Assembly: GCA_017992305.1 (NCBI GenBank)
Contig: JAGOOX010000001.1
Location: 1-48,368 of the forward strand
DNA: 48,368 bases
Origin: Minisyncoccota bacterium
Lineage (GTDB): Bacteria; Patescibacteriota; Minisyncoccia; Phycocordibacterales; UBA9973
Reading direction: 5' to 3'
Both the position numbers and the translations under genes were made by a program. Positions 2,746 to 18,086 of the stretch are shown one piece after another. The notes under the pieces were generated by a model. The model had not been told where the DNA came from, made no database searches, and was given only the letters and a program-made list of their open reading frames with translations. Every line of letters begins with the position of its first letter. Positions within the stretch are counted from its first letter, which is position 1.

Positions 2746-2770
2746 GTTTTATACCGTTTGATTTTTTGTA

Positions 2771-2936
2771 GAAAAATAAAAATAGCTTCTCACGCAGGGT
2801 ACGTATATTTTGTCGAGACAAAATTACTCAGTCTCGCGCCGACGCGCTGCGAAGCCCCTGCTTAGAGAACTATTTTATATTTTTCTTCCCCCTCCTTGTC
2901 AGCCTTGGCTGATGGGGAGGGGGTTAGGAGGTGGGG
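2771..2936 (+). repeat. Copy 1 of a ~165-nt GC-rich structured repeat (probable RNA element) ending in a G-rich tract
   Basis: Homologous to 16421-16583 in the same orientation. Termini are conserved and stems covary. 17-bp hairpin 2888-2923 has three G.U pairs. ORF 2810..2992 is an artefact of this element. Confidence 0.7.
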
Positions 2937-3235
2937 ATGTGACTAATTTTTTAATTTTGTTTTTATATTTTCTATATTTCGTTTGTAAATAATAGTTTAC
3001 ATATAGATAATTTTATTAAAAAAGCTATTTTATATATAAAAAATATAGAAAATTTATTATTTTTTATAAGTTTATGTAAATAATAATTTACGTATATACT
3101 TTTTTAACTTTTCCACACATACTAATGCTAAAAATATTGTTATTACATAACTATTAAACGATAATATATGTATAGCAACGAGATGGTTACCTGGTCGCAT
3201 CACGTTGCGCTTATAAATAATATGCATTAATGTTT

Positions 3236-3367
3236 ATGGCAGCAAAGAAAAGAAAGGCAGCTAAAAAAGCAGTTAAAAAAGTAGCAAAAAAGAAAGTTGC
3301 TAAAAAGACTGTAAAAAAAGCAGCTAAAAAAGCAGCAAAAAAGAAAACAGCTAAAAAGAAGAAATAA
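3236..3367 (+). CDS. 43-aa Lys/Ala-rich histone-H1-like (Hc1/HCT-like) basic protein
   Basis: ATG 3236 to TAA 3365-3367 encodes MAAKKRKAAKKAVKKVAKKKVAKKTVKKAAKKAAKKKTAKKKK. A strong terminator follows directly. Absent from the ORF track (<60 aa). Confidence 0.6.
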   Translation: MAAKKRKAAKKAVKKVAKKKVAKKTVKKAAKKAAKKKTAKKKK

Positions 3368-7077: not shown

Positions 7078-10000
7078 CTAAAGCGCCTTTACTGCTTCGA
7101 TTATAATACTTTTTTCATCGTTGCGCAATGTAACCTTGCCGGCCAGGCCAATTGGCTCGCCTTTTTCGATAGCTGGGAAGAACTCTTTGAAGTTTTTAGG
7201 GAACACAACGGCCTCGATTGAACCTGTTTTGTCTTCAAGTTTTACAAAAGCCATTTGTTCGTTGTTTTTAGTAAAGATTTTGCGATAACCTATAGGTAAT
7301 ACAACTAACTTTATGACTGTATTTTTTTTAGTACTATCAATAATTTCTTTGATAGTTAGGCTTGATTTGCCGTCATATTTATCTAGTGGGTGACCCGAAA
7401 TGTATAAACCTAGCAACTCTTTCTCCCAGTCTAGTTTTTGTTTTTGGGTTGCAGGTTCGCACACCTCTAGTTGCATAGCACGAGACTCTAGGCCTAATGA
7501 AAATAGTGATGTTTGTTCGGTATTGGCCCCAATTGATTTACGATGCTCAAGTATTTTTTCAAGGCTTTGCATTAATTGGTTGCGTTCGCCAAAATCATCA
7601 AGCGCGCCTGATTGTATCAATGCCTCCATTGATTTTTTATTTAAATTTTTGTGTTGTATGCGCTCGATAAAATTATCAATAGTGGTAAATTTACCATTTG
7701 TTTTACGTTCGTTAATTATGGCTTTGCCAATTTCGTAGCCAAAGTTTTTAATACTTTTTAAACCAAAGCGAATTTTGTCGGTCACGACGCCGTCTTCAAC
7801 CACCGTGGTAAAGTCTGAGAATGATTCATTGACTGATGGGGGTAGTATTTTAAAGCCCATACGTTTAGCCTCGACAATCATTTCAGTTACTGTGTCTAGG
7901 TTGTCAGATTCGCAAGTCAGTACAGCCGTCATGTATTCAGACGGGTAGTGAGCCTTCATGTACGCTGTGCGATATGCGAGCAGTGCATACACGGCCGAGT
8001 GAGATTTGTTAAAACCATAGGCGGCAAATGTTTCGATCATGTCCCATAGTTCCTTGGCGGCGCGTGGGTGCATATCATTTTCAATACAGCCATCAATAAA
8101 GTGGTCTTTTTGTTTGGCCATTTCTTCGGGAATCTTTTTACCTACTGCTTTACGAAACTTGTCAGATTCACCACGTGTATAGCCGGCCAGGTCGGTGGCC
8201 ATTCTCATCACATCTTCTTGGTACACGATAATACCATATGTCGTTTTTAAAATTGGCTCCATGCGAGGGTCTAGGTATTTAATTTTGCTTGGGTTGTGTT
8301 TACGTTCAATATAGTCAGGTATAAAAGCCATCGGGCCTGGTCGGTAAAGTGATGCCATGGCGATTAGGTCTTCAAGTGTCGAAGGCTTTAGTTCTTTTAA
8401 CCATTTTTGCATACCACTAGAGCCGAATTGAAAAACGCTCATTGTTTCGCCACGGCCAAACAATTCGTAGGTTAGTTTGTCATCCATTGGTATATCTTCA
8501 AGTTTGATTTCAATATTGCGAATTTTTTTAACCCGTTCAATTGCCTCGGCAATAATTGAAAGGTTGCGCAAACCCAAGAAGTCGAATTTAGGTAAATTAA
8601 TAATACCTTCGCGGTCGCCCGTGTACATACTGTATTGGGTTATAACCTTAGTTTCGCCTTTGGGGTCAAACTGTACTGGTGAGAAGTCATCGATACGACC
8701 AGTGGGTGATATAACAACGCCGGCGGCATGCACCGAAATGTGGCGCACGTTACCTTCGATTTTTTTAGCCATGTCAATAATTGTTTTGACATCGCGTTCT
8801 GTTTCATATGCTTCGGCCAGTTCAGGGGTTAATTCAAGTGCGCGTTTAATTGTCATAGGGAAGCCTTGTGAGCCCATAGGTACTAATTTTGAAATACGGT
8901 CACCGGTTGAATACGGGTAACCCAATGCACGCGCCACGTCTTTGACCGAACCACGGGCCGCCATAGTACCAAATGTACCAATTTGGGCCACTGCATCAGC
9001 CCCATATTTACCTCGGGCATAGTCAATAATTTCATCGCGTCTAGTGTCGGCAAAGTCCATGTCGATATCGGGCAATGATGGCCGGTCAGGGTTTAGAAAA
9101 CGCTCAAAGAGTAGGCCGTACTTCATTGGGTTAATGTTTGAAATACCAATTAAATATGAAACCATTGAACCAGCGGCCGATCCACGTGTTTGGTTAAATA
9201 TGCCCATGCGTGTTGCATTTTTCATAAAGTCAGACACACACAAAAAATATGATGAATAGCCTTTGTCTTGAATAACTTTTAATTCAAAATTTACACGTTC
9301 AACTATTTCAGGCGTTTTTTCAATTTTGCGATCAATGTAGCCTTGTTCAACTAATTGCAACAATTCGCTTTCAAATGTTGTGCCAGCAGGTATTGGGAAG
9401 GTGGGGAAGAACCATGAACTGGTGTCGATATCAATATCAACTAAATCGGCCACCATCATTGTGTTCTCTACTGCCCCTGGAACATCGCTAAATTCTTCGT
9501 AGGCTGTATTTTGGTCAATGAACGACCAGTTGCCATCCATTTTAAAATTATCACTGTTGGTGTTGATTTTAAGTAATGTGTCGTGGGCCTCGTTATCGTC
9601 GGCGCATAAATAGTGCGAATCCCAAGTACCAACCATGGGTATATTTAATTCCTCTGAAATCTTTTTAATTTCAGGGATGACTTGTTTGTACCATTCGTTG
9701 TAAAAATCAGTTTCTTTGTGGCACATGACCTCTAAAAAGACATCGTCAAAACATTCGGTATAAAACTTTATCAATTCGCGAGCCTCTTTGTAATTTTTAT
9801 TGCGAAGTAGTTGTATAAATTCACTGCCTGGGCAACCCGATAGGCAAATAATACCGGCACCATATTGTTTTAATAGGTCTTTGTCCATGCGGGGTTTGTA
9901 GTAAAAGCCCTCTAGGTTTGCCAGTGAAACCATTTTCATTAAATGTTTATAGCCCTCTAGATTTTTAGCTAGTAGTGTTAGGTGGTAGCGTTTTGTGTCA

Positions 10001-11625: not shown

Positions 11626-12165
11626 ATGCACATTTATTTAAGAAAAGACGAAGAATTAGAAAGTGTTATCACGCTTAAAAACACTGAAACAGTACCTCAA
11701 AAATTTTGTGGTCAAACCGTTTGGAACTATGACCTGGTTCCGTACATCGAAATCAATACCGATCTTGAAGCGTTAATGAAAAACGAAACACTTAGAAAAT
11801 TCTTCCTTAGGGCTACACTCATTACGTTTCCAGAGTATCAAAAGATTAATAATCCAAAAAGGAACGGTTGGATTACTCGAGAGTTTGGAGATTATAAATT
11901 GGGTAATGCGACTGCTCAACTTGCACCTGCCAAGTCGGCTGAAACAACTTATTTGCTAAAAGTTGAAACTGATTCATGGCAAGGACTCGTTGATATGGAA
12001 AAATTGCAAAAAAGATTATGGGCCGGTACGATTGCTCCTGTTATTTCTTACGAAAGACAACAGGATAAGCAACACCCACTTACTGTCTTGAAAGAAATTT
12101 TAGGACTGCACAAGTTAAGTGCTTTAAAAAGATTTATTCTTGCAATGAGGTTAACCCGGGCATAA
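11626..12165 (+). CDS. Hypothetical protein, cassette A (179 aa)
   Basis: ORF between the duplicated promoter and terminator. ~72-nt leader. C-terminal tail LHKLSALKRFILAMRLTRA. Confidence 0.6.
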   Translation: MHIYLRKDEELESVITLKNTETVPQKFCGQTVWNYDLVPYIEINTDLEALMKNETLRKFFLRATLITFPEYQKINNPKRNGWITREFGDYKLGNATAQLAPAKSAETTYLLKVETDSWQGLVDMEKLQKRLWAGTIAPVISYERQQDKQHPLTVLKEILGLHKLSALKRFILAMRLTRA

Positions 12166-12366: not shown

Positions 12367-12906
12367 ATGAAACAGGAAACACCTAAAGCAAGTTTGAAGT
12401 TTTTCATTCCCAGTGGGATTGTTGACTCAAGAGAATTTAAAGAAAAAAAGGGTACCTATCATGGCGGTTGTGGCGAATGGTCACCAACAGGAGCCGGATT
12501 TATTCAGTACTCTCATGAATTTTTACACCTACAGCCATCATCCTTTATTTCAGACGATCTCTTACGGTATTTAAATGAAAATGCAACAAGAGTCGTTTTG
12601 CAAATACCGGCGGTACCAAACGAAAAAGTTATTAAAGGTTTAAGGCCTAAAGATAGCACTATTCAAGCAAACCAGGAGAAAGAATTTTCTATTCAGTTAG
12701 GTAAAAGAAGAATCTCAGGTATGAATTGTCAAATACAAAGTTCCTCGTTTGATCTTATCTTTGAAGGTAAATCTTCAAAAGATGTTTTTGAGACATTTCA
12801 CAGTTTTGCACCAGGCTATTTTCCTCAATCTTCTTTTATTCCAATTACTCATTTTTTGAGTGGAATGAATTTTTTTAGAAGGTTGCGTTTAGTTTTTGGT
12901 AAATAA
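12367..12906 (+). CDS. Hypothetical protein, cassette B (179 aa)
   Basis: Same length as cassette A with the same flanks. C-terminal tail THFLSGMNFFRRLRLVFGK aligns with the cassette A tail (H-x-L-S-x4-F). Confidence 0.6.
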   Translation: MKQETPKASLKFFIPSGIVDSREFKEKKGTYHGGCGEWSPTGAGFIQYSHEFLHLQPSSFISDDLLRYLNENATRVVLQIPAVPNEKVIKGLRPKDSTIQANQEKEFSIQLGKRRISGMNCQIQSSSFDLIFEGKSSKDVFETFHSFAPGYFPQSSFIPITHFLSGMNFFRRLRLVFGK

Positions 12907-15764: not shown

Positions 15765-16358
15765 TTATTTATTAAGCAGGTCTGTTTCACCGGGTAGGTA
15801 ACTAATTCGGTTTAGGGGCCATAGGCGCAGGTATACTCGGCCGACTAGTTTCTTCTCATCAAGTAAGCCCCACGCGCGTGAATCATAACTAACCGGTCGG
15901 TTGTCACCTAGTACAAAAGCTTTTCCATCGGGTATGGTTATAGTTAAACTGTCGCCATCATGATTTTGTAAATAGGCTTCGTAAATTGTAAAGCCTTCTG
16001 GATGTTCTGTATTTTTTATTGTTATTTTACCGTCAGTTGTTAGGGTAATCGTATCGCCTGGCAAACCAATAAGCCTTTTAACCAAATACTTTTGATTTTC
16101 ATTAGGGAAGTGGAAAACAACAACATCGCCCCTATGAATTTTGTTTAAATTATAGGTTAATTTGTCGACAATTAGATATTCTTTGTCATGAAAAGTTGGG
16201 TCCATAGAAGTGCCCGATACAACAAAAGGTTGCATTATAAAATACCGAATAGGTATAACAATAATTGCTGCAATTATTAAAAACCTAAACAGTTCCTTGA
16301 TATCATCAACGTAATTGCCTTTTTTGCCATCAACTGATGGATTAATTTGTTCATTCAT
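15765..16358 (-). CDS. lepB: Signal peptidase I
   Basis: Motifs SGTSMDPTF, KRLIGLPGD, GDNRPVSYDSR. Start moved to ATG 16358 (MNEQINP...); the ORF-track extension to 16517 reads through the GC-rich repeat. Confidence 0.85.
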   Translation of the reverse strand: MNEQINPSVDGKKGNYVDDIKELFRFLIIAAIIVIPIRYFIMQPFVVSGTSMDPTFHDKEYLIVDKLTYNLNKIHRGDVVVFHFPNENQKYLVKRLIGLPGDTITLTTDGKITIKNTEHPEGFTIYEAYLQNHDGDSLTITIPDGKAFVLGDNRPVSYDSRAWGLLDEKKLVGRVYLRLWPLNRISYLPGETDLLNK

Positions 16359-16420
16359 CTGTGTTAGTATACACTTTTTTAAATATTGACACAAATAGGG
16401 TTTTTGTGTGGTAGGTGCGA

Positions 16421-16583
16421 GAAAAATAAAAATAGCTTCTTGCGCAAGGACCGCATATTTTCCTGAGCGAAAATTGCTCTGGCTCGGCTCGCCAGCCTGC
16501 GCGCGCCCTTGCCACAAGAACTATTTTTATTCCCCCCCCCTCCTTGTTGCCTTGGCCAATGGGGAGGGGGTTAGGGGGTGGGG
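16421..16583 (+). repeat. Copy 2 of the GC-rich structured repeat; ends in the canonical G-quadruplex motif GGGGAGGGGGTTAGGGGGTGGGG
   Basis: Homologous to 2771-2936. Hairpin 16536-16570. G4 motif 16561-16583. Lies in the lepB/pth divergent intergenic region. Confidence 0.7.
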
Positions 16584-16588
16584 TTTTG

Positions 16589-16597
16589 TGTTATAAT
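16589..16597 (+). promoter_or_regulatory. Extended -10 (TGtTATAAT) 6 nt upstream of the pth ATG; leaderless geometry
   Basis: TG 16589-16590, TATAAT 16592-16597, ATG 16604. Confidence 0.55.
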
Positions 16598-16603
16598 CTA
16601 TTC

Positions 16604-17143
16604 ATGTATATTTTCGCACTTGGTAACCCTGGTAAAAAATATGAAAACACTCCGCACAATGCGGGCCAAATTGTACTGCGTGATTTGGCCCCAAGTGGCG
16701 CCCAAATAATTTATCCCGATACTTTTATGAACGAATCGGGCAAGTTTATTAAAAAGTTTCTAGACTATAAAAACATAAACAATACTGAATATAAAAATAT
16801 TGTTATAGTGTATGACGACATTGATTTGCCAATTGGTGAATTTAAACTTGCTTTTGGCCGTGGCGATGGGGGGCACAATGGTTTAATTTCAGTCATTAAC
16901 GAATTAGGTACCCGCGATTTTATACGACTACGCATTGGTATTTGCCCAACTGACAGTAATGGTAATGCGCGCAAACCTAAAAACATATTTGGTCAAAACA
17001 CAACGCACAAATACGTATTACGAAATTTGTCACCTAACGAAACTACTAAACTAACTGCCAATCGCTCAAAAATCAAAAATATTTTAGAATCACTATACAT
17101 AAACGGTTACGAAAAAACCGCTAGTTTTATGGGGGTTTTGTAA
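16604..17143 (+). CDS. pth: Peptidyl-tRNA hydrolase
   Basis: MYIFALGNPGKKYENTPHNAGQ N-terminus, GRGDGGHNGL motif. The ORF-track start 16544 lies inside the repeat. Confidence 0.85.
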   Translation: MYIFALGNPGKKYENTPHNAGQIVLRDLAPSGAQIIYPDTFMNESGKFIKKFLDYKNINNTEYKNIVIVYDDIDLPIGEFKLAFGRGDGGHNGLISVINELGTRDFIRLRIGICPTDSNGNARKPKNIFGQNTTHKYVLRNLSPNETTKLTANRSKIKNILESLYINGYEKTASFMGVL

Positions 17144-17429
17144 AAACCTTTAAATTAGGTTTAATTCTAAATCTGTGTCATAAAACAATTTAACTTGATT
17201 TTTGTCAAATATTATTATATAGTTATTATATCGCAAGGGTCTCTAAGTTGGCTGTGCATAGTAAACTCCTTAAATCCCGGTCGCCTGAAGTGTAAGATTA
17301 AACATTTTCAGCGGAGGTTATCTAGTTGTGTGTATTTTAGAAATCGCTTTTCTTTGGATGGTTATTAAGCCCGATGAAAGAAAATGCAAATTCGGTACGA
17401 AACTATTATTCTTAAAAACAAATAAATAT

Positions 17430-18086
17430 ATGACTAATACTCAAAAAATCTCAAAGGCATTTGCTTTTGGTGCGACTACTTTGGCCTTAGCTATGCTAAT
17501 TGCGCCTTCAATCTCAAGTGCGTTAACACTAACTCGTCAATTACAAGTTGGTAAATCAGGTGCTGACGTTACGGCTTTACAAACATTCTTGGCCCAAGAC
17601 CGTGTTATTTACCCACAAGGTAAAGTTACTGGCTACTTTGGTTTTTTAACTAAATCTGCAGTTTCAAACTTCCAATCTCGTAATGGTTTAACTGCTGACG
17701 GTATTTCAGGTGCACGAACTAATGCCATAATAAACTTTCAAATGTCAAACGGTATGGGGAACGCTAATGGATTAGACGTTGATGCTGCAATTATTTCTAG
17801 TACTGGAGTAAATGTTACTACAAACACTGCAAATGTTGCTTGGTATACAAATGAAAATACAACTGGTGTAGTTTACTACAGCACTAGCCCGATAATGCTT
17901 ACAGAAGGTGATTACAGTGCAACCGTTACTGGTCAAACTGCAATGACTGACAACATGATGCATACTAGTCAAAATGTTGCCCTACAAGGTTTACAATCAA
18001 ATACAACTTACTACTACTCAATATACACAACTGATGCAAAGGGTAATGTAACAATTACATGGCCTGCAACATTTCGAACTAACTAG
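17430..18086 (+). CDS. Secreted protein with a peptidoglycan-binding (PG_binding_1-like) domain plus an FN3-like domain
   Basis: Signal peptide MTNTQKISKAFAFGATTLALAMLIAPSISSA. GADVTALQTFL...GYFGFLTKSAVSNFQSRNGLTADG. C-terminal WYTNENTTGVVYY...LQSNTTYYYSIY. Confidence 0.7.
   Translation: MTNTQKISKAFAFGATTLALAMLIAPSISSALTLTRQLQVGKSGADVTALQTFLAQDRVIYPQGKVTGYFGFLTKSAVSNFQSRNGLTADGISGARTNAIINFQMSNGMGNANGLDVDAAIISSTGVNVTTNTANVAWYTNENTTGVVYYSTSPIMLTEGDYSATVTGQTAMTDNMMHTSQNVALQGLQSNTTYYYSIYTTDAKGNVTITWPATFRTN

Follow-up and report, generated by a model that had tools for sequence, protein, structure and literature searches.

Between lepB and pth in a Saccharibacteria genome, a G-rich run that probably belongs to a BoxC-type triplex repeat joined to a palindromic, MITE-like element

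The window, that is, the whole stretch of 48,368 nt of Saccharibacteria DNA analysed here, carries between the divergent genes lepB and pth an intergenic element of which another version (copy 1) lies elsewhere in the same stretch. The first-pass annotation treated the element next to pth (copy 2) as one structured unit. Its predicted fold was confirmed, its unity was not: it is a composite of two separable parts, here called module A (16420-16531) and module B (16536-16583). The features to which the text refers are the following:

15765-16358, minus strand: lepB, signal peptidase I, 197 aa, ATG at 16358 (PF10502 in relatives)
16366-16394, minus strand: lepB promoter, outside the element, read from the sequence and compared with relatives
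16420-16531, plus strand: module A, copy 2, palindromic, MITE-like, about 112 nt, delimited by copy alignment
16536-16545, plus strand: module B, arm 1, C-rich, CCCCCTCCTT, given by the triplex-motif finder and as a hairpin arm in folds
16546-16560, plus strand: module B, loop 1, GTTGCCTTGGCCAAT, with a small nested stem inside (folds, triplex-motif finder)
16561-16570, plus strand: module B, arm 2, GGGGAGGGGG, which closes the hairpin on its 3' side and supplies G-tracts 1-2 of the G-quadruplex (G4) motif
16571-16573, plus strand: module B, loop 2, TTA, matching the 'type A' loop of E. coli TMECO (PMC4666352)
16574-16583, plus strand: module B, arm 3, GGGGGTGGGG, which repeats arm 2 in mirror image and supplies G-tracts 3-4 of the G4 motif
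16561-16583, plus strand: canonical G4 motif GGGGAGGGGGTTAGGGGGTGGGG, tracts of 4, 5, 5 and 4 G, loops of 1, 3 and 1 nt
16589-16597, plus strand: extended -10 of pth, TGtTATAAT, read from the sequence and compared with relatives
16604-17143, plus strand: pth, peptidyl-tRNA hydrolase, 179 aa (PF01195), leaderless start
2770-2887, plus strand: module A, copy 1, with a full right terminal repeat (...ATATTTTTCT), a covariance-model match
2888-2936, plus strand: module B, copy 1, CCCCCTCCTT / 16-nt loop / GGGGAGGGGG / TTA / GGAGGTGGGG

On the minus strand, the lepB promoter consists of a -35 TTGTGT (16389-16394), 17 nt, a -10 TATACT (16366-16371) and 7 nt to the ATG, so a divergent lepB promoter does lie on the other side of the element, as had been noted. 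This stretch is kept in the relatives with an empty spacer, near-identical in the closer ones and diverged in L152, L155 and L163. On the plus strand, pth is read as leaderless, because its ATG at 16604 stands only 6 nt after the -10, and the arrangement TGnTATAAT (TGgTATAGT in L155), 6 nt and ATG occurs in every relative, whether or not the element is present. The promoter scan found no TTGACA-like hexamer 16-18 nt upstream of the pth -10, where GGTTAG or TTAGGG stands instead, and since the empty-site alleles are also without a -35, pth appears to rely on TGnTATAAT. The geometry described earlier is accurate: 5 nt separate the end of the G4 motif from the extended -10, and the motif includes the position that a -35 would take (16569-16574, GGTTAG). 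Promoters inside the element were rejected, none having appeared in the scan, and TTGACA at 16386-16391 is present in empty-site alleles too, without a usable -10. An intrinsic terminator in the element was likewise rejected, as there is no T-run on either strand.

A scan of both strands for four tracts of at least 3 G with loops of 1-7 nt returned a single canonical G4 motif in the 48-kb window, the one at 16561-16583, which bears out its earlier description as four tracts of at least 4 G with loops of 1-3 nt. That such a motif is improbable by chance was borne out as well: dinucleotide-preserving shuffles yielded 0.10 motifs with tracts of at least 3 G per window (one or more in 48 of 500 shuffles), and the version with at least 4 G arose in 0 of 500. 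The C-rich/G-rich hairpin proposed at first pass pairs CCCCCTCCTT (16536-16545) with G-tracts 1 and 2 (16561-16570) and, because hairpin arm and G4 share two tracts, the two structures exclude each other. Their competition is reproduced by ViennaRNA with RNA parameters, which, with G4s allowed, predicts that copy 2 switches from a hairpin of -31.0 kcal/mol to a G4 of -37.1 kcal/mol. Copy 1, which had been called a weaker version, carries GGGGAGGGGGTTAGGAGGTGGGG at 2914-2936, a sequence that falls outside the canonical G4 definition, and keeps its hairpin in the same folding.

It is tempting to read these features as a regulatory switch between G4 and hairpin that tunes transcription of pth, perhaps also of lepB, a G4 on the non-template strand altering promoter opening or the access of RNA polymerase. 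Such a switch would be well placed, with a canonical motif at -21 to -43 relative to the pth start, and for copy 2 the G4 has a lower predicted free energy than the hairpin; moreover, L002 and L027 retain the tract version GGGGGTGGGGG, and E. coli members of the repeat family show ion-dependent CD signatures of G4 versus hairpin (PMC5100583). However, the comparison with relatives, which covered about 160 kb of Saccharibacteria DNA, argues against it. The lepB-pth spacer of L159, L160, L161 and L162 measures 77 nt (gtgtggtagg joined to gtgtgTGcTATAAT...ATG) and is devoid of the element, and that of L164 is near-empty; in L161, this empty spacer stands in DNA 95.4% identical to the window. The check that had been named for the switch combined absence of the element from close relatives with unchanged expression; its sequence half, the absence, is what was found, up to 95% DNA identity, and the core promoters of lepB and pth are both intact in the empty-spacer relatives. 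The element at the other locus tells against the switch too: the composite in L002, between rpmB and mscL, lies tail-on to a terminator and, in that orientation, not upstream of a gene.

The spacer is in fact highly variable. Module A is absent from L159-L162, L164 and L155, and it stands alone and inverted at the lepB-pth locus in L030/L029/L031, L028 and L152, while the spacers of other relatives contain module A fragments or different palindromes. Altogether, at least seven different states occur, and so many structural alleles of one housekeeping spacer among close relatives are a modestly new observation. In L027 and L158, module B occurs by itself 3' of the pth stop, a site that is empty in the window, so that filled and empty sites are available at two loci; L158 additionally has a module A fragment beside a different triplex unit. 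L159 and L002 derive from one MAG. Exact look-up of the HisRS of the window returned one 1.8-kb contig, and that of LepB none.

Module A is a small, non-coding element of 112-125 bp. In copy 2, an AT-rich terminal inverted repeat, AGAAAAATAAAAATAGCTTCTTG / CAAGAACTATTTTTATT, closes two small internal hairpins, and its right end is truncated by 6 nt relative to copy 1; these two copies in 48 kb score 127 bits (copy 2) and 130 bits (copy 1) with the covariance model. The terminal inverted repeats are perfect over 23 bp in L030 and imperfect over about 20-38 bp in the window copies. ERIC/IRU, Correia/NEMIS and RUP are MITEs and large palindromic intergenic repeats, and module A is like them in size, in its long terminal inverted repeats and in the hairpin formed by the whole element, a likeness of description with no sequence similarity established. 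It is also MITE-like in occurring in both orientations, in its strain polymorphism, in being non-coding without a transposase nearby, and in breaking assemblies (contigs L028, L029 and L031 terminate inside it). Neither transposase nor integrase genes were found in the 48-kb window, and DGR or retron parts were rejected because it has no reverse transcriptase. Comparison of filled with empty sites revealed no clear target-site duplication; a flanking TA is possible in L030 and to the left of copy 1, not in copy 2.

Unlike typical MITEs, module A has internal hairpins that covary, and no parent insertion sequence was found in the window. Compensatory changes occur at 12 pairs among only five copies, internal hairpins included, and this sequence covariation indicates selection on the fold, unlike a purely neutral insertion. 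Such selection fits mobility as folded single-stranded DNA, and it also fits an RNA function. Pattern searches beyond the Saccharibacteria were uninformative: a metagenome scan with a gap of 80-110 nt (the true gap being about 75) gave four chance AT-rich matches (L022-L025), and a degenerate closing-stem pattern gave more than 120 chance AT-rich matches in viral contigs, none with module A by BLAST or covariance model; a pattern for the interior of module A found none in viral contigs either. Protein database searches with a concatenated six-frame query and with a 62-aa ORF of the element had no match.

Whether A+B might instead be a small structured RNA gene, or a cis-acting RNA, has to be weighed at this point. 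The corresponding fold would have a long closing stem, a three-way junction, a 3' hairpin and a G-rich tail, and it draws support from strongly negative z-scores (-3.4 to -6.5 overall, with -3.4 to -4.9 for RNA and DNA folds of module A copy 2), from the 12 covarying pairs, from G.U pairs that lengthen the 3' hairpin on the plus strand only, and from the conservation of interior sequence between loci. On the other hand, the palindrome folds nearly equally on both strands, module A takes both orientations at one locus and is carried by some close relatives but missing from others, and assemblies break inside it, as is typical of repeats. Scanning revealed no promoter-like or terminator-like site belonging to A+B, and the three A+B copies all sit in spacers that appear to be untranscribed from the flanking genes. 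No Rfam 15 covariance model matched at the gathering threshold, and at E<=10 only chance-level matches to eukaryotic miRNA, snoRNA and lncRNA models turned up; a known RNA family or riboswitch was rejected on this ground. Taken with these points, an RNA function for the composite is quite unlikely.

Module B is preceded directly by four extra C (16532-16535). In both window copies, CCCCCTCCTT and GGGGAGGGGG form 8 Watson-Crick and 2 G.T pairs, and arm 3 then repeats arm 2 in mirror image. In copy 2, arm 3 has a T opposite A in the mirror and all 10 of 10 triads are of an allowed kind, only 8 being canonical because the two distal pairs are G.T; in copy 1, 9 of 10 triads are allowed, and a G replaced by A at position 3 of arm 3 abolishes the canonical G4. 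Over 200 shuffles the triplex finder gave 0.015 matches, compared with two in the window. Loop 1 of the window copies has 15-16 nt, that of L002 and L027 has 9 nt, and most instances from other phyla have 3-8 nt; loop 2 reads TTA in the two window copies, in L002 and L027, and in the majority of viral-contig instances.

For a broader view, a family of 35 distinct instances was assembled from Saccharibacteria, Anaerolineae and viral contigs. The genome scan with a strict module B pattern hit two loci only, L001 and L002, and BLAST of module B against plasmids and phages had no match. In the Saccharibacteria, every copy of such repeats is intergenic, on the minus strand in L027 and L158 and on the plus strand in the window; L028 has a doublet at 7467-7572, and the Anaerolineae unit L001 is nested between inverted repeats within a duplicated terminator hairpin. 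Across the family, the A of arm 2 shifts from place to place; of 60 such A, 58 have T or A at the mirror position in arm 3 and none has C, a statistic that is partly by construction, since the finder tolerates at most one mismatched triad. Positions left free by the search pattern nevertheless show GG with GG, AA with TT, and A with T. G4 potential, by comparison, is not conserved across homologous copies: the canonical motif is kept in only 20 of the 35 instances, and the 15 without it keep the mirror arm, as exemplified by units of the AGGAGGGGG/GGGGGTGGT type, which have perfect mirror triads without four tracts of at least 3 G. As far as the sequences tell, the conserved property would thus be mirror symmetry according to triplex rules, not the four G-tracts, and copy 1 together with these 15 instances weighs against a G4 switch. 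This covariation between mirror arms, which at the level of sequence supports a triplex fold over a G4 as what is conserved, is a modestly new finding.

Repeats of this kind are known from E. coli. Holder et al. (NAR 2015, PMC4666352) described BoxC/PIT/TMECO, studied earlier by Bachellier and by Hoyne/Maher as cited there, as intrastrand purine-motif triplex repeats, and NMR on E. coli oligonucleotides showed an intrastrand triplex and not a G4, with CD also supporting the triplex. The E. coli motif is found in 5414 of 5426 genomes, with a median of 18 copies, intergenic and unannotated. The window repeat has the same order of parts (C-arm, loop, complementary G-arm, a 3-nt TTA loop of 'type A' and a mirror G-arm) and the same triads, G.G:C, T.A:T and A.A:T; further likenesses are its intergenic, multicopy occurrence in both orientations, the inverted doublets, the variability between strains and the lack of a transposase nearby. 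The differences are equally clear. The strict published pattern, CCCTCNCCC N3-6 GGGNGAGGG N3 GGGNGAGGG (loop 1 of 1-6 in the ITxF search), is unmatched in the window, where the arm is GGGGAGGGGG in place of GGGNGAGGG; unlike TMECO, the window arms are 10 nt long with 8 Watson-Crick and 2 G.T pairs, and loop 1 has 9-16 nt with a small stem of its own, versus 3-6 nt in the published pattern. Unlike E. coli, the host is an AT-rich member of the Saccharibacteria (CPR), and the repeat is joined to a palindromic MITE-like module. Furthermore, the triplex, known by NMR and CD from E. coli oligonucleotides, is a predicted one in the window variant. Viral contig L011, however, contains an inverted doublet of one unit with the exact TMECO pattern and one unit of the window type, and since the exact pattern thus occurs as doublet partner, the window unit is to be seen as a sequence variant, not as strict TMECO.

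The same family has also been described from the G4 side. The HPG1/HPG2 'G-quadruplex-hairpin-duplex switch' motifs of E. coli (Kaplan et al., NAR 2016, PMC5100583) are the BoxC/TMECO repeats seen as G4; like the window motif, they have G-tracts, a TTA middle loop and a conserved C-rich 5' flank that can form a competing hairpin, but their tracts comprise 3 G (GGGAGAGGGTTAGGGTGAGGG) instead of 4-5. That study proposed a switch between hairpin and G4 (or triplex) with a possible regulatory role and demonstrated no such role. The idea of a switch has thus already been published for E. coli members, the NMR of which shows a triplex (PMC4666352). In addition, the E. coli repeats were found to be without promoter or terminator activity and without a link to gene classes (PMC4666352), which is a further argument against regulation of pth. 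What does count against the triplex reading is the preference for the G4, by about 6 kcal/mol, in ViennaRNA with RNA parameters, and by this model tracts of 4 G with loops of 1-3 nt may let a G4 compete better here than it does in the E. coli variant. With all this considered, a G4 switch tuning pth is very unlikely; the regulatory reading of the spacer, tempting as it was, is probably wrong and is now removed.

REP/REPIN elements, mobilised by RAYT transposases, are a further point of comparison: they share with module B a short G/C-rich hairpin, a conserved single-stranded flank, the occurrence as single units or inverted doublets and an intergenic location. Module B differs by having no GTAG head, with no RAYT gene seen, and by its flank, which repeats the hairpin arm in mirror image, a feature missing from REPs.

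We consider it likely, with a probability of roughly 0.8, that the G-rich run is the G-rich half of a BoxC-type triplex repeat joined to module A, and that the whole is a lineage-specific insertion between lepB and pth. The spacer is hypervariable, and A+B most likely represents non-B-DNA repeats inserted in a strain-specific manner. A dedicated role of the run in switching pth is unlikely, because the run forms the end of a selfish, structure-forming repeat of a known type and is missing in the closest relatives; the proposal of a structural switch for pth is therefore not supported, the run being part of a dispersed repeat that crosses phyla. According to this insertion model, module B would supply arm 2, the TTA loop and the mirror arm 3 of an intrastrand purine-motif triplex repeat, with the palindromic module A of about 115 nt attached at its 5' side. 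The composite would sit outside the conserved control region, in a spacer that is not transcribed and that separates the divergent, leaderless promoters of lepB and pth, and pth would tolerate the insertion without obvious harm, because its extended -10 promoter appears to be independent of a -35. Whenever the DNA becomes single-stranded (replication, supercoiling, transcription bubbles), the hairpin of C-arm and G-arm would take up the mirror G-arm as third strand, by analogy with the E. coli homologues, and the four G-tracts would be a by-product of two mirror-symmetric G-rich arms. The main consequence would presumably be local instability and turnover, which fits the many spacer alleles among relatives; these alleles also match the reported link of triplex motifs with local genome instability. 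A side-effect of the element on transcription of pth or lepB is possible.

How the repeats spread is a more speculative matter. In E. coli, repeat loci are more rearranged between strains, transposases are absent nearby, and the 2015 study did not identify the dispersal mechanism (PMC4666352). In our comparison, the A/B junction is identical at three loci, the B end of the composite has no inverted repeat there, L158 has its module A fragment and L001 its nested unit. The fixed junction, the fragment and the nested unit lead to the idea, unlikely though we hold it to be, that small palindromic MITE-like elements, moving in the form of folded single-stranded DNA, carry BoxC-type triplex repeats along or target them, and so disperse them. 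In a weaker variant, insertions in tiny CPR genomes could act as structural insulators or tuners between divergent, leaderless extended -10 promoters. Modestly new, in any case, are the physical joining of a triplex-type repeat to a palindromic MITE-like element and the occurrence of BoxC-type repeats in a Saccharibacteria (CPR) genome, an Anaerolineae MAG and many viral contigs.

Some minor features of the element resemble translation signals. A CCUCC/GGAGG hairpin, or AGGAGGUG followed by ATG-TGA, might be taken for an anti-SD/SD device or a start-stop mini-ORF, and copy 1 does carry TTAGGAGGTGGGGATGTGA, which is SD-like with a 4-nt spacer and an ATG-stop. The GGAGG of copy 1, however, amounts to the single G-to-A change in arm 3 and is absent in copy 2, L002 and L027, no ATG follows copy 2 at the right spacing, and the neighbouring genes are leaderless, which makes translation mimicry extremely improbable. 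Mimicry of the rRNA 3' end was also considered and rejected. Finally, as had been pointed out from the sequence at first pass, gene callers over-extend both neighbours: the 250-aa ORF of lepB enters the element, and the database version of pth has 194 aa and begins with MGRGLGGG, so repeats of this type can yield over-extended gene calls.

The structured element that occurs twice on the + strand of the window, at 2770-2936 (copy 1) and 16420-16583 (copy 2), with ~76% identity over the element (BLAST), is a composite of two separable modules: module A, a MITE-like palindrome, and module B, composed of a C-arm, loop 1, a G-arm (arm 2), loop 2 and a second G-arm (arm 3). With a probability of roughly 0.8, the G-run of copy 2 makes up the G-rich half of a BoxC-like triplex repeat; this repeat and the MITE-like palindrome to which it is joined would have been inserted lineage-specifically into a hypervariable, untranscribed spacer and tolerated there by -35-independent leaderless promoters.

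Features of the two copies and of the lepB-pth spacer
2770-2887, + strand: module A of copy 1, ~115-nt palindrome
16420-16531, + strand: module A of copy 2, ~115-nt palindrome
2888-2936, + strand: module B of copy 1, C-arm/G-arm hairpin, TTA, second G-arm
16536-16583, + strand: module B of copy 2, same layout
16561-16583, + strand: canonical G-quadruplex (G4) motif GGGGAGGGGGTTAGGGGGTGGGG
16589-16597, + strand: pth extended -10 TGtTATAAT, 5 nt after the end of the G4 motif
16604, + strand: pth ATG, 6 nt past the -10
16358, - strand: lepB ATG
16366-16371, - strand: lepB -10 TATACT, outside the element
16389-16394, - strand: lepB -35 TTGTGT, outside the element

Module A consists of a long AT-rich terminal inverted repeat enclosing two small hairpins, and folds strongly on either strand, as RNA or DNA (z-scores of -3.4 to -6.5). 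Compensatory changes at 12 pairs among five copies, internal hairpins included, imply that this fold is under selection, which fits selection for mobility as folded single-stranded DNA; an RNA role may also account for it. Within the window, the covariance model of module A detects these two copies and none besides; it has no match in the viral contigs. In syntenic contigs of relatives, module A stands alone and inverted in the lepB-pth spacer (L028 to L031, plus a degraded copy in L152), with 23-bp perfect terminal inverted repeats in L029 to L031, and three of the module A-bearing contigs terminate within it, as is expected of a repeat. Module B, in turn, stands alone on the opposite strand directly 3' of the pth stop codon in L027 and L158; unlike in these two relatives, this site is empty of module B in the window. 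No transposase or integrase genes are encoded in the window. In the Saccharibacteria MAG L002, the composite is flanked by the rpmB terminator and mscL, runs opposite to both genes, and adjoins the mscL extended -10 TGcTAAAAT with its module A end; contig L159, from the same MAG, has an empty lepB-pth spacer.

The first-pass annotation had described a G4 motif in copy 2 that competes with a hairpin, a weaker version in copy 1, and a possible structural switch at the pth promoter; its sequence-level statements are all correct. On both strands of the 48,368-nt window (G+C ~38%), GGGGAGGGGGTTAGGGGGTGGGG is the sole canonical G4 motif, defined as four tracts of G>=3 with loops of 1-7; in 500 shuffles that preserved dinucleotides, the G>=3 form averaged 0.10 per window and the G>=4 form was absent throughout. 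Tracts 1-2 (16561-16570) also form the 3' hairpin arm, paired with CCCCCTCCTT (16536-16545). If ViennaRNA (with RNA parameters) may fold G4s, module B of copy 2 passes from a hairpin at -31.0 to a G4 at -37.1 kcal/mol, whereas copy 1 remains a hairpin.

The idea of a hairpin/G4 switch is already published for E. coli repeats named HPG1/HPG2 "G-quadruplex-hairpin-duplex switch" motifs, in which a C-rich 5' flank is conserved (Kaplan et al. 2016, PMC5100583). The same repeats constitute the BoxC/PIT/"TMECO" intrastrand triplex motif, CCCTCNCCC N3-6 GGGNGAGGG N3 GGGNGAGGG, whose loop 2 is TTA ('type A') or CCG; it is exclusively intergenic, frequently found in inverted pairs, highly variable in copy number between strains, without transposases nearby and devoid of promoter or terminator activity, it folds by NMR into a triplex (18 imino signals) and not a G4, and its loci are more rearranged than control loci between E. 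coli strains (Holder et al. 2015, PMC4666352). Of 5426 complete E. coli genomes, 5414 contain this motif, at a median of 18 places; the one example inspected is intergenic, the listed matches carrying no annotation.

Arm 3 of copy 2 (GGGGGTGGGG) mirrors arm 2 (GGGGAGGGGG) exactly, T facing A, and all 10 of its 10 purine-motif triads are allowed; copy 1 has 9 of 10, one G-to-A substitution in its arm 3 accounting for the "SD-like" GGAGG. A triplex finder requiring C-arm, G-arm and mirror arm, with at most one mismatched triad, yielded two matches in the window, compared with 0.015 per shuffle. In a set of 35 distinct instances, the arm 2 A varies in position and faces T or A in 58 of 60 cases and C never, partly by construction since the finder tolerates at most one mismatch. 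At positions 9-10, left free by the original search pattern (which was constrained only at the arm 2 end, in the TTA loop and over bases 1-4 of arm 3), GG mirrors GG, AA mirrors TT and A mirrors T. Since the mirror arms are kept and four G>=3 tracts are present in only 20 of the 35 instances, the conserved property is mirror symmetry according to triplex rules, not G4 potential. The G4 motif is most likely a by-product of the two mirror-symmetric G-arms, although with tracts of 4-5 G it may be a better competitor in copy 2 than in the E. coli repeats.

Module B of the window departs from the strict TMECO sequence pattern, and its loop 1, which contains a small stem, is 15-16 nt long (9 nt in L002 and L027) as against 3-6 nt. 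An inverted doublet in the viral contig L011, which pairs a unit matching the TMECO pattern exactly with a unit of window type, ties the two variants together. Triplex formation, measured for E. coli oligonucleotides only, would by analogy extend to the window variant. The search pattern matched L001 (an Anaerolineae MAG) and L002 among species-representative genomes, and 19 stretches in viral contigs, mostly G+C-rich and mutually unrelated; a looser search gave several triplex-type units per viral contig, single or as inverted doublets. In L001 (3930-4100), a triplex unit lies between 13-nt imperfect inverted repeats (CATTGGCATCAAG / CTTGATGCCTATG), with a 20-nt terminator hairpin (AGGGAGCTAAATGGCTCCCT) duplicated on either side of the whole ~125-nt block; the arrangement looks like an insertion into the terminator that duplicated the hairpin. 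In L028 (7467-7572), 3' of gyrA, two triplex units stand head to head with a 19-nt hairpin between them; the second shares the long loop 1 of copy 1, and the contig ends within it.

The promoter geometry described earlier also holds: the G4 motif ends 5 nt from the extended -10 of pth, which is leaderless because its ATG lies only 6 nt past the -10, and the lepB promoter lies beyond the element. The database call of pth is over-extended, its start (MGRGLGGG) falling within the element. Relatives were gathered via Pth homologues and members of the same 90% cluster, and their syntenic contigs are 72-95% identical in DNA.

States of the lepB-pth spacer
Window: A(+)B(+)
L159, L160, L161, L162: empty, 77 nt (gtgtggtagg followed by gtgtgTGcTATAATtcacttATG)
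L164: near-empty
L155 (more distant relative): empty
L027: arm-3 remnant plus 22 nt
L030, L028: A(-) only
L152: degraded A(-) plus another palindrome
L158: 18-nt A fragment plus a different triplex unit (CCTCCCCCT/AGGGGGAGG/ctg/GGTAGGGGT)
L163: yet another palindrome

TGnTATAAT, 6 nt and ATG are kept for pth in every allele examined (L155 has the variant TGgTATAGT), and the lepB promoter stretch is also kept, near-identical in closer relatives and with greater divergence in L152, L155 and L163. In the empty allele, too, pth has no -35, which, with the -10 kept in all alleles, implies that pth is independent of the sequence replaced by the element. The structural part of the earlier interpretation stands, whereas the proposed regulatory switch is not supported, the element being missing from the same spacer in relatives up to 95.4% identical to the window (L161) with both promoters conserved. 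Instead, the composite would have inserted in the window lineage into a hypervariable, untranscribed spacer, where leaderless, -35-independent promoters would tolerate it; it is probably neutral for pth, and instability would be its main consequence. It is rather improbable that MITE-like palindromes carry or target triplex repeats; if they did, the spread of BoxC-type repeats would be explained.

More distant relatives hold unrelated small palindromes in this spacer (L152 5330-5392 and L163 4415-4535, with 17-bp and 15-bp inverted repeats), one abutting the pth ATG; palindromic elements in general seem to land or be retained in this spacer. Downstream of pth, ~250 non-coding nt 5' of a PG_binding_1 protein gene are conserved (window 17160-17430, L027 3020-3290, L158 4165-4440), the segment between them and the pth stop being variable; they have no Rfam match at E<=1 and may be a structured leader.

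Around copy 1, a long hairpin (TTACCCCTTTCATGCAGG...CCTGCATCAAGAGGGTAA) followed by T8 (2644-2751) lies immediately 5' of the element and matches the module A model weakly (28 bits, E ~0.005); it may represent either a degenerate relative or a different palindromic element. A ~97-nt hairpin (2473-2569), G-rich inside and closed by a 20-bp stem (AGATGAAGTTTGTAATTGCT/AGCAATTACAAGCTTCATCT), has no Rfam match at E<1, and an inverted copy (83% identical) 3' of gyrA in L152 (10836-10900) identifies it as a second family of palindromic intergenic repeats. Just past smc, a strong promoter-like TTGACA-17-TATACT preceded by TG (2354-2382, + strand, 11/12 match) is followed by a ~80-nt unit whose end, at 2447-2470, is a clean intrinsic terminator formed by ACCGCCTTCGGGCGGT and a T-run; the unit (2354-2470), without an Rfam match, may be a small RNA gene. 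On the other side of copy 1, ~290 very AT-rich nt separate it from a 45-aa Lys/Ala-rich ORF of histone-H1-like composition (MFMAAKKRKAAKKAVKKVAKKK..., 3230-3367) just 5' of secA.

Elsewhere, a bAvd-like gene stands together with a reverse transcriptase (RVT_1) in the relative L163 (8069-9402), in the region that corresponds by synteny to window ~19.7-19.9 kb; this combination, characteristic of a diversity-generating retroelement, is missing from the window. Finally, two neighbouring ORFs of exactly 179 aa each (11626-12165 and 12367-12906), neither with a Pfam match, may be tandem paralogues.
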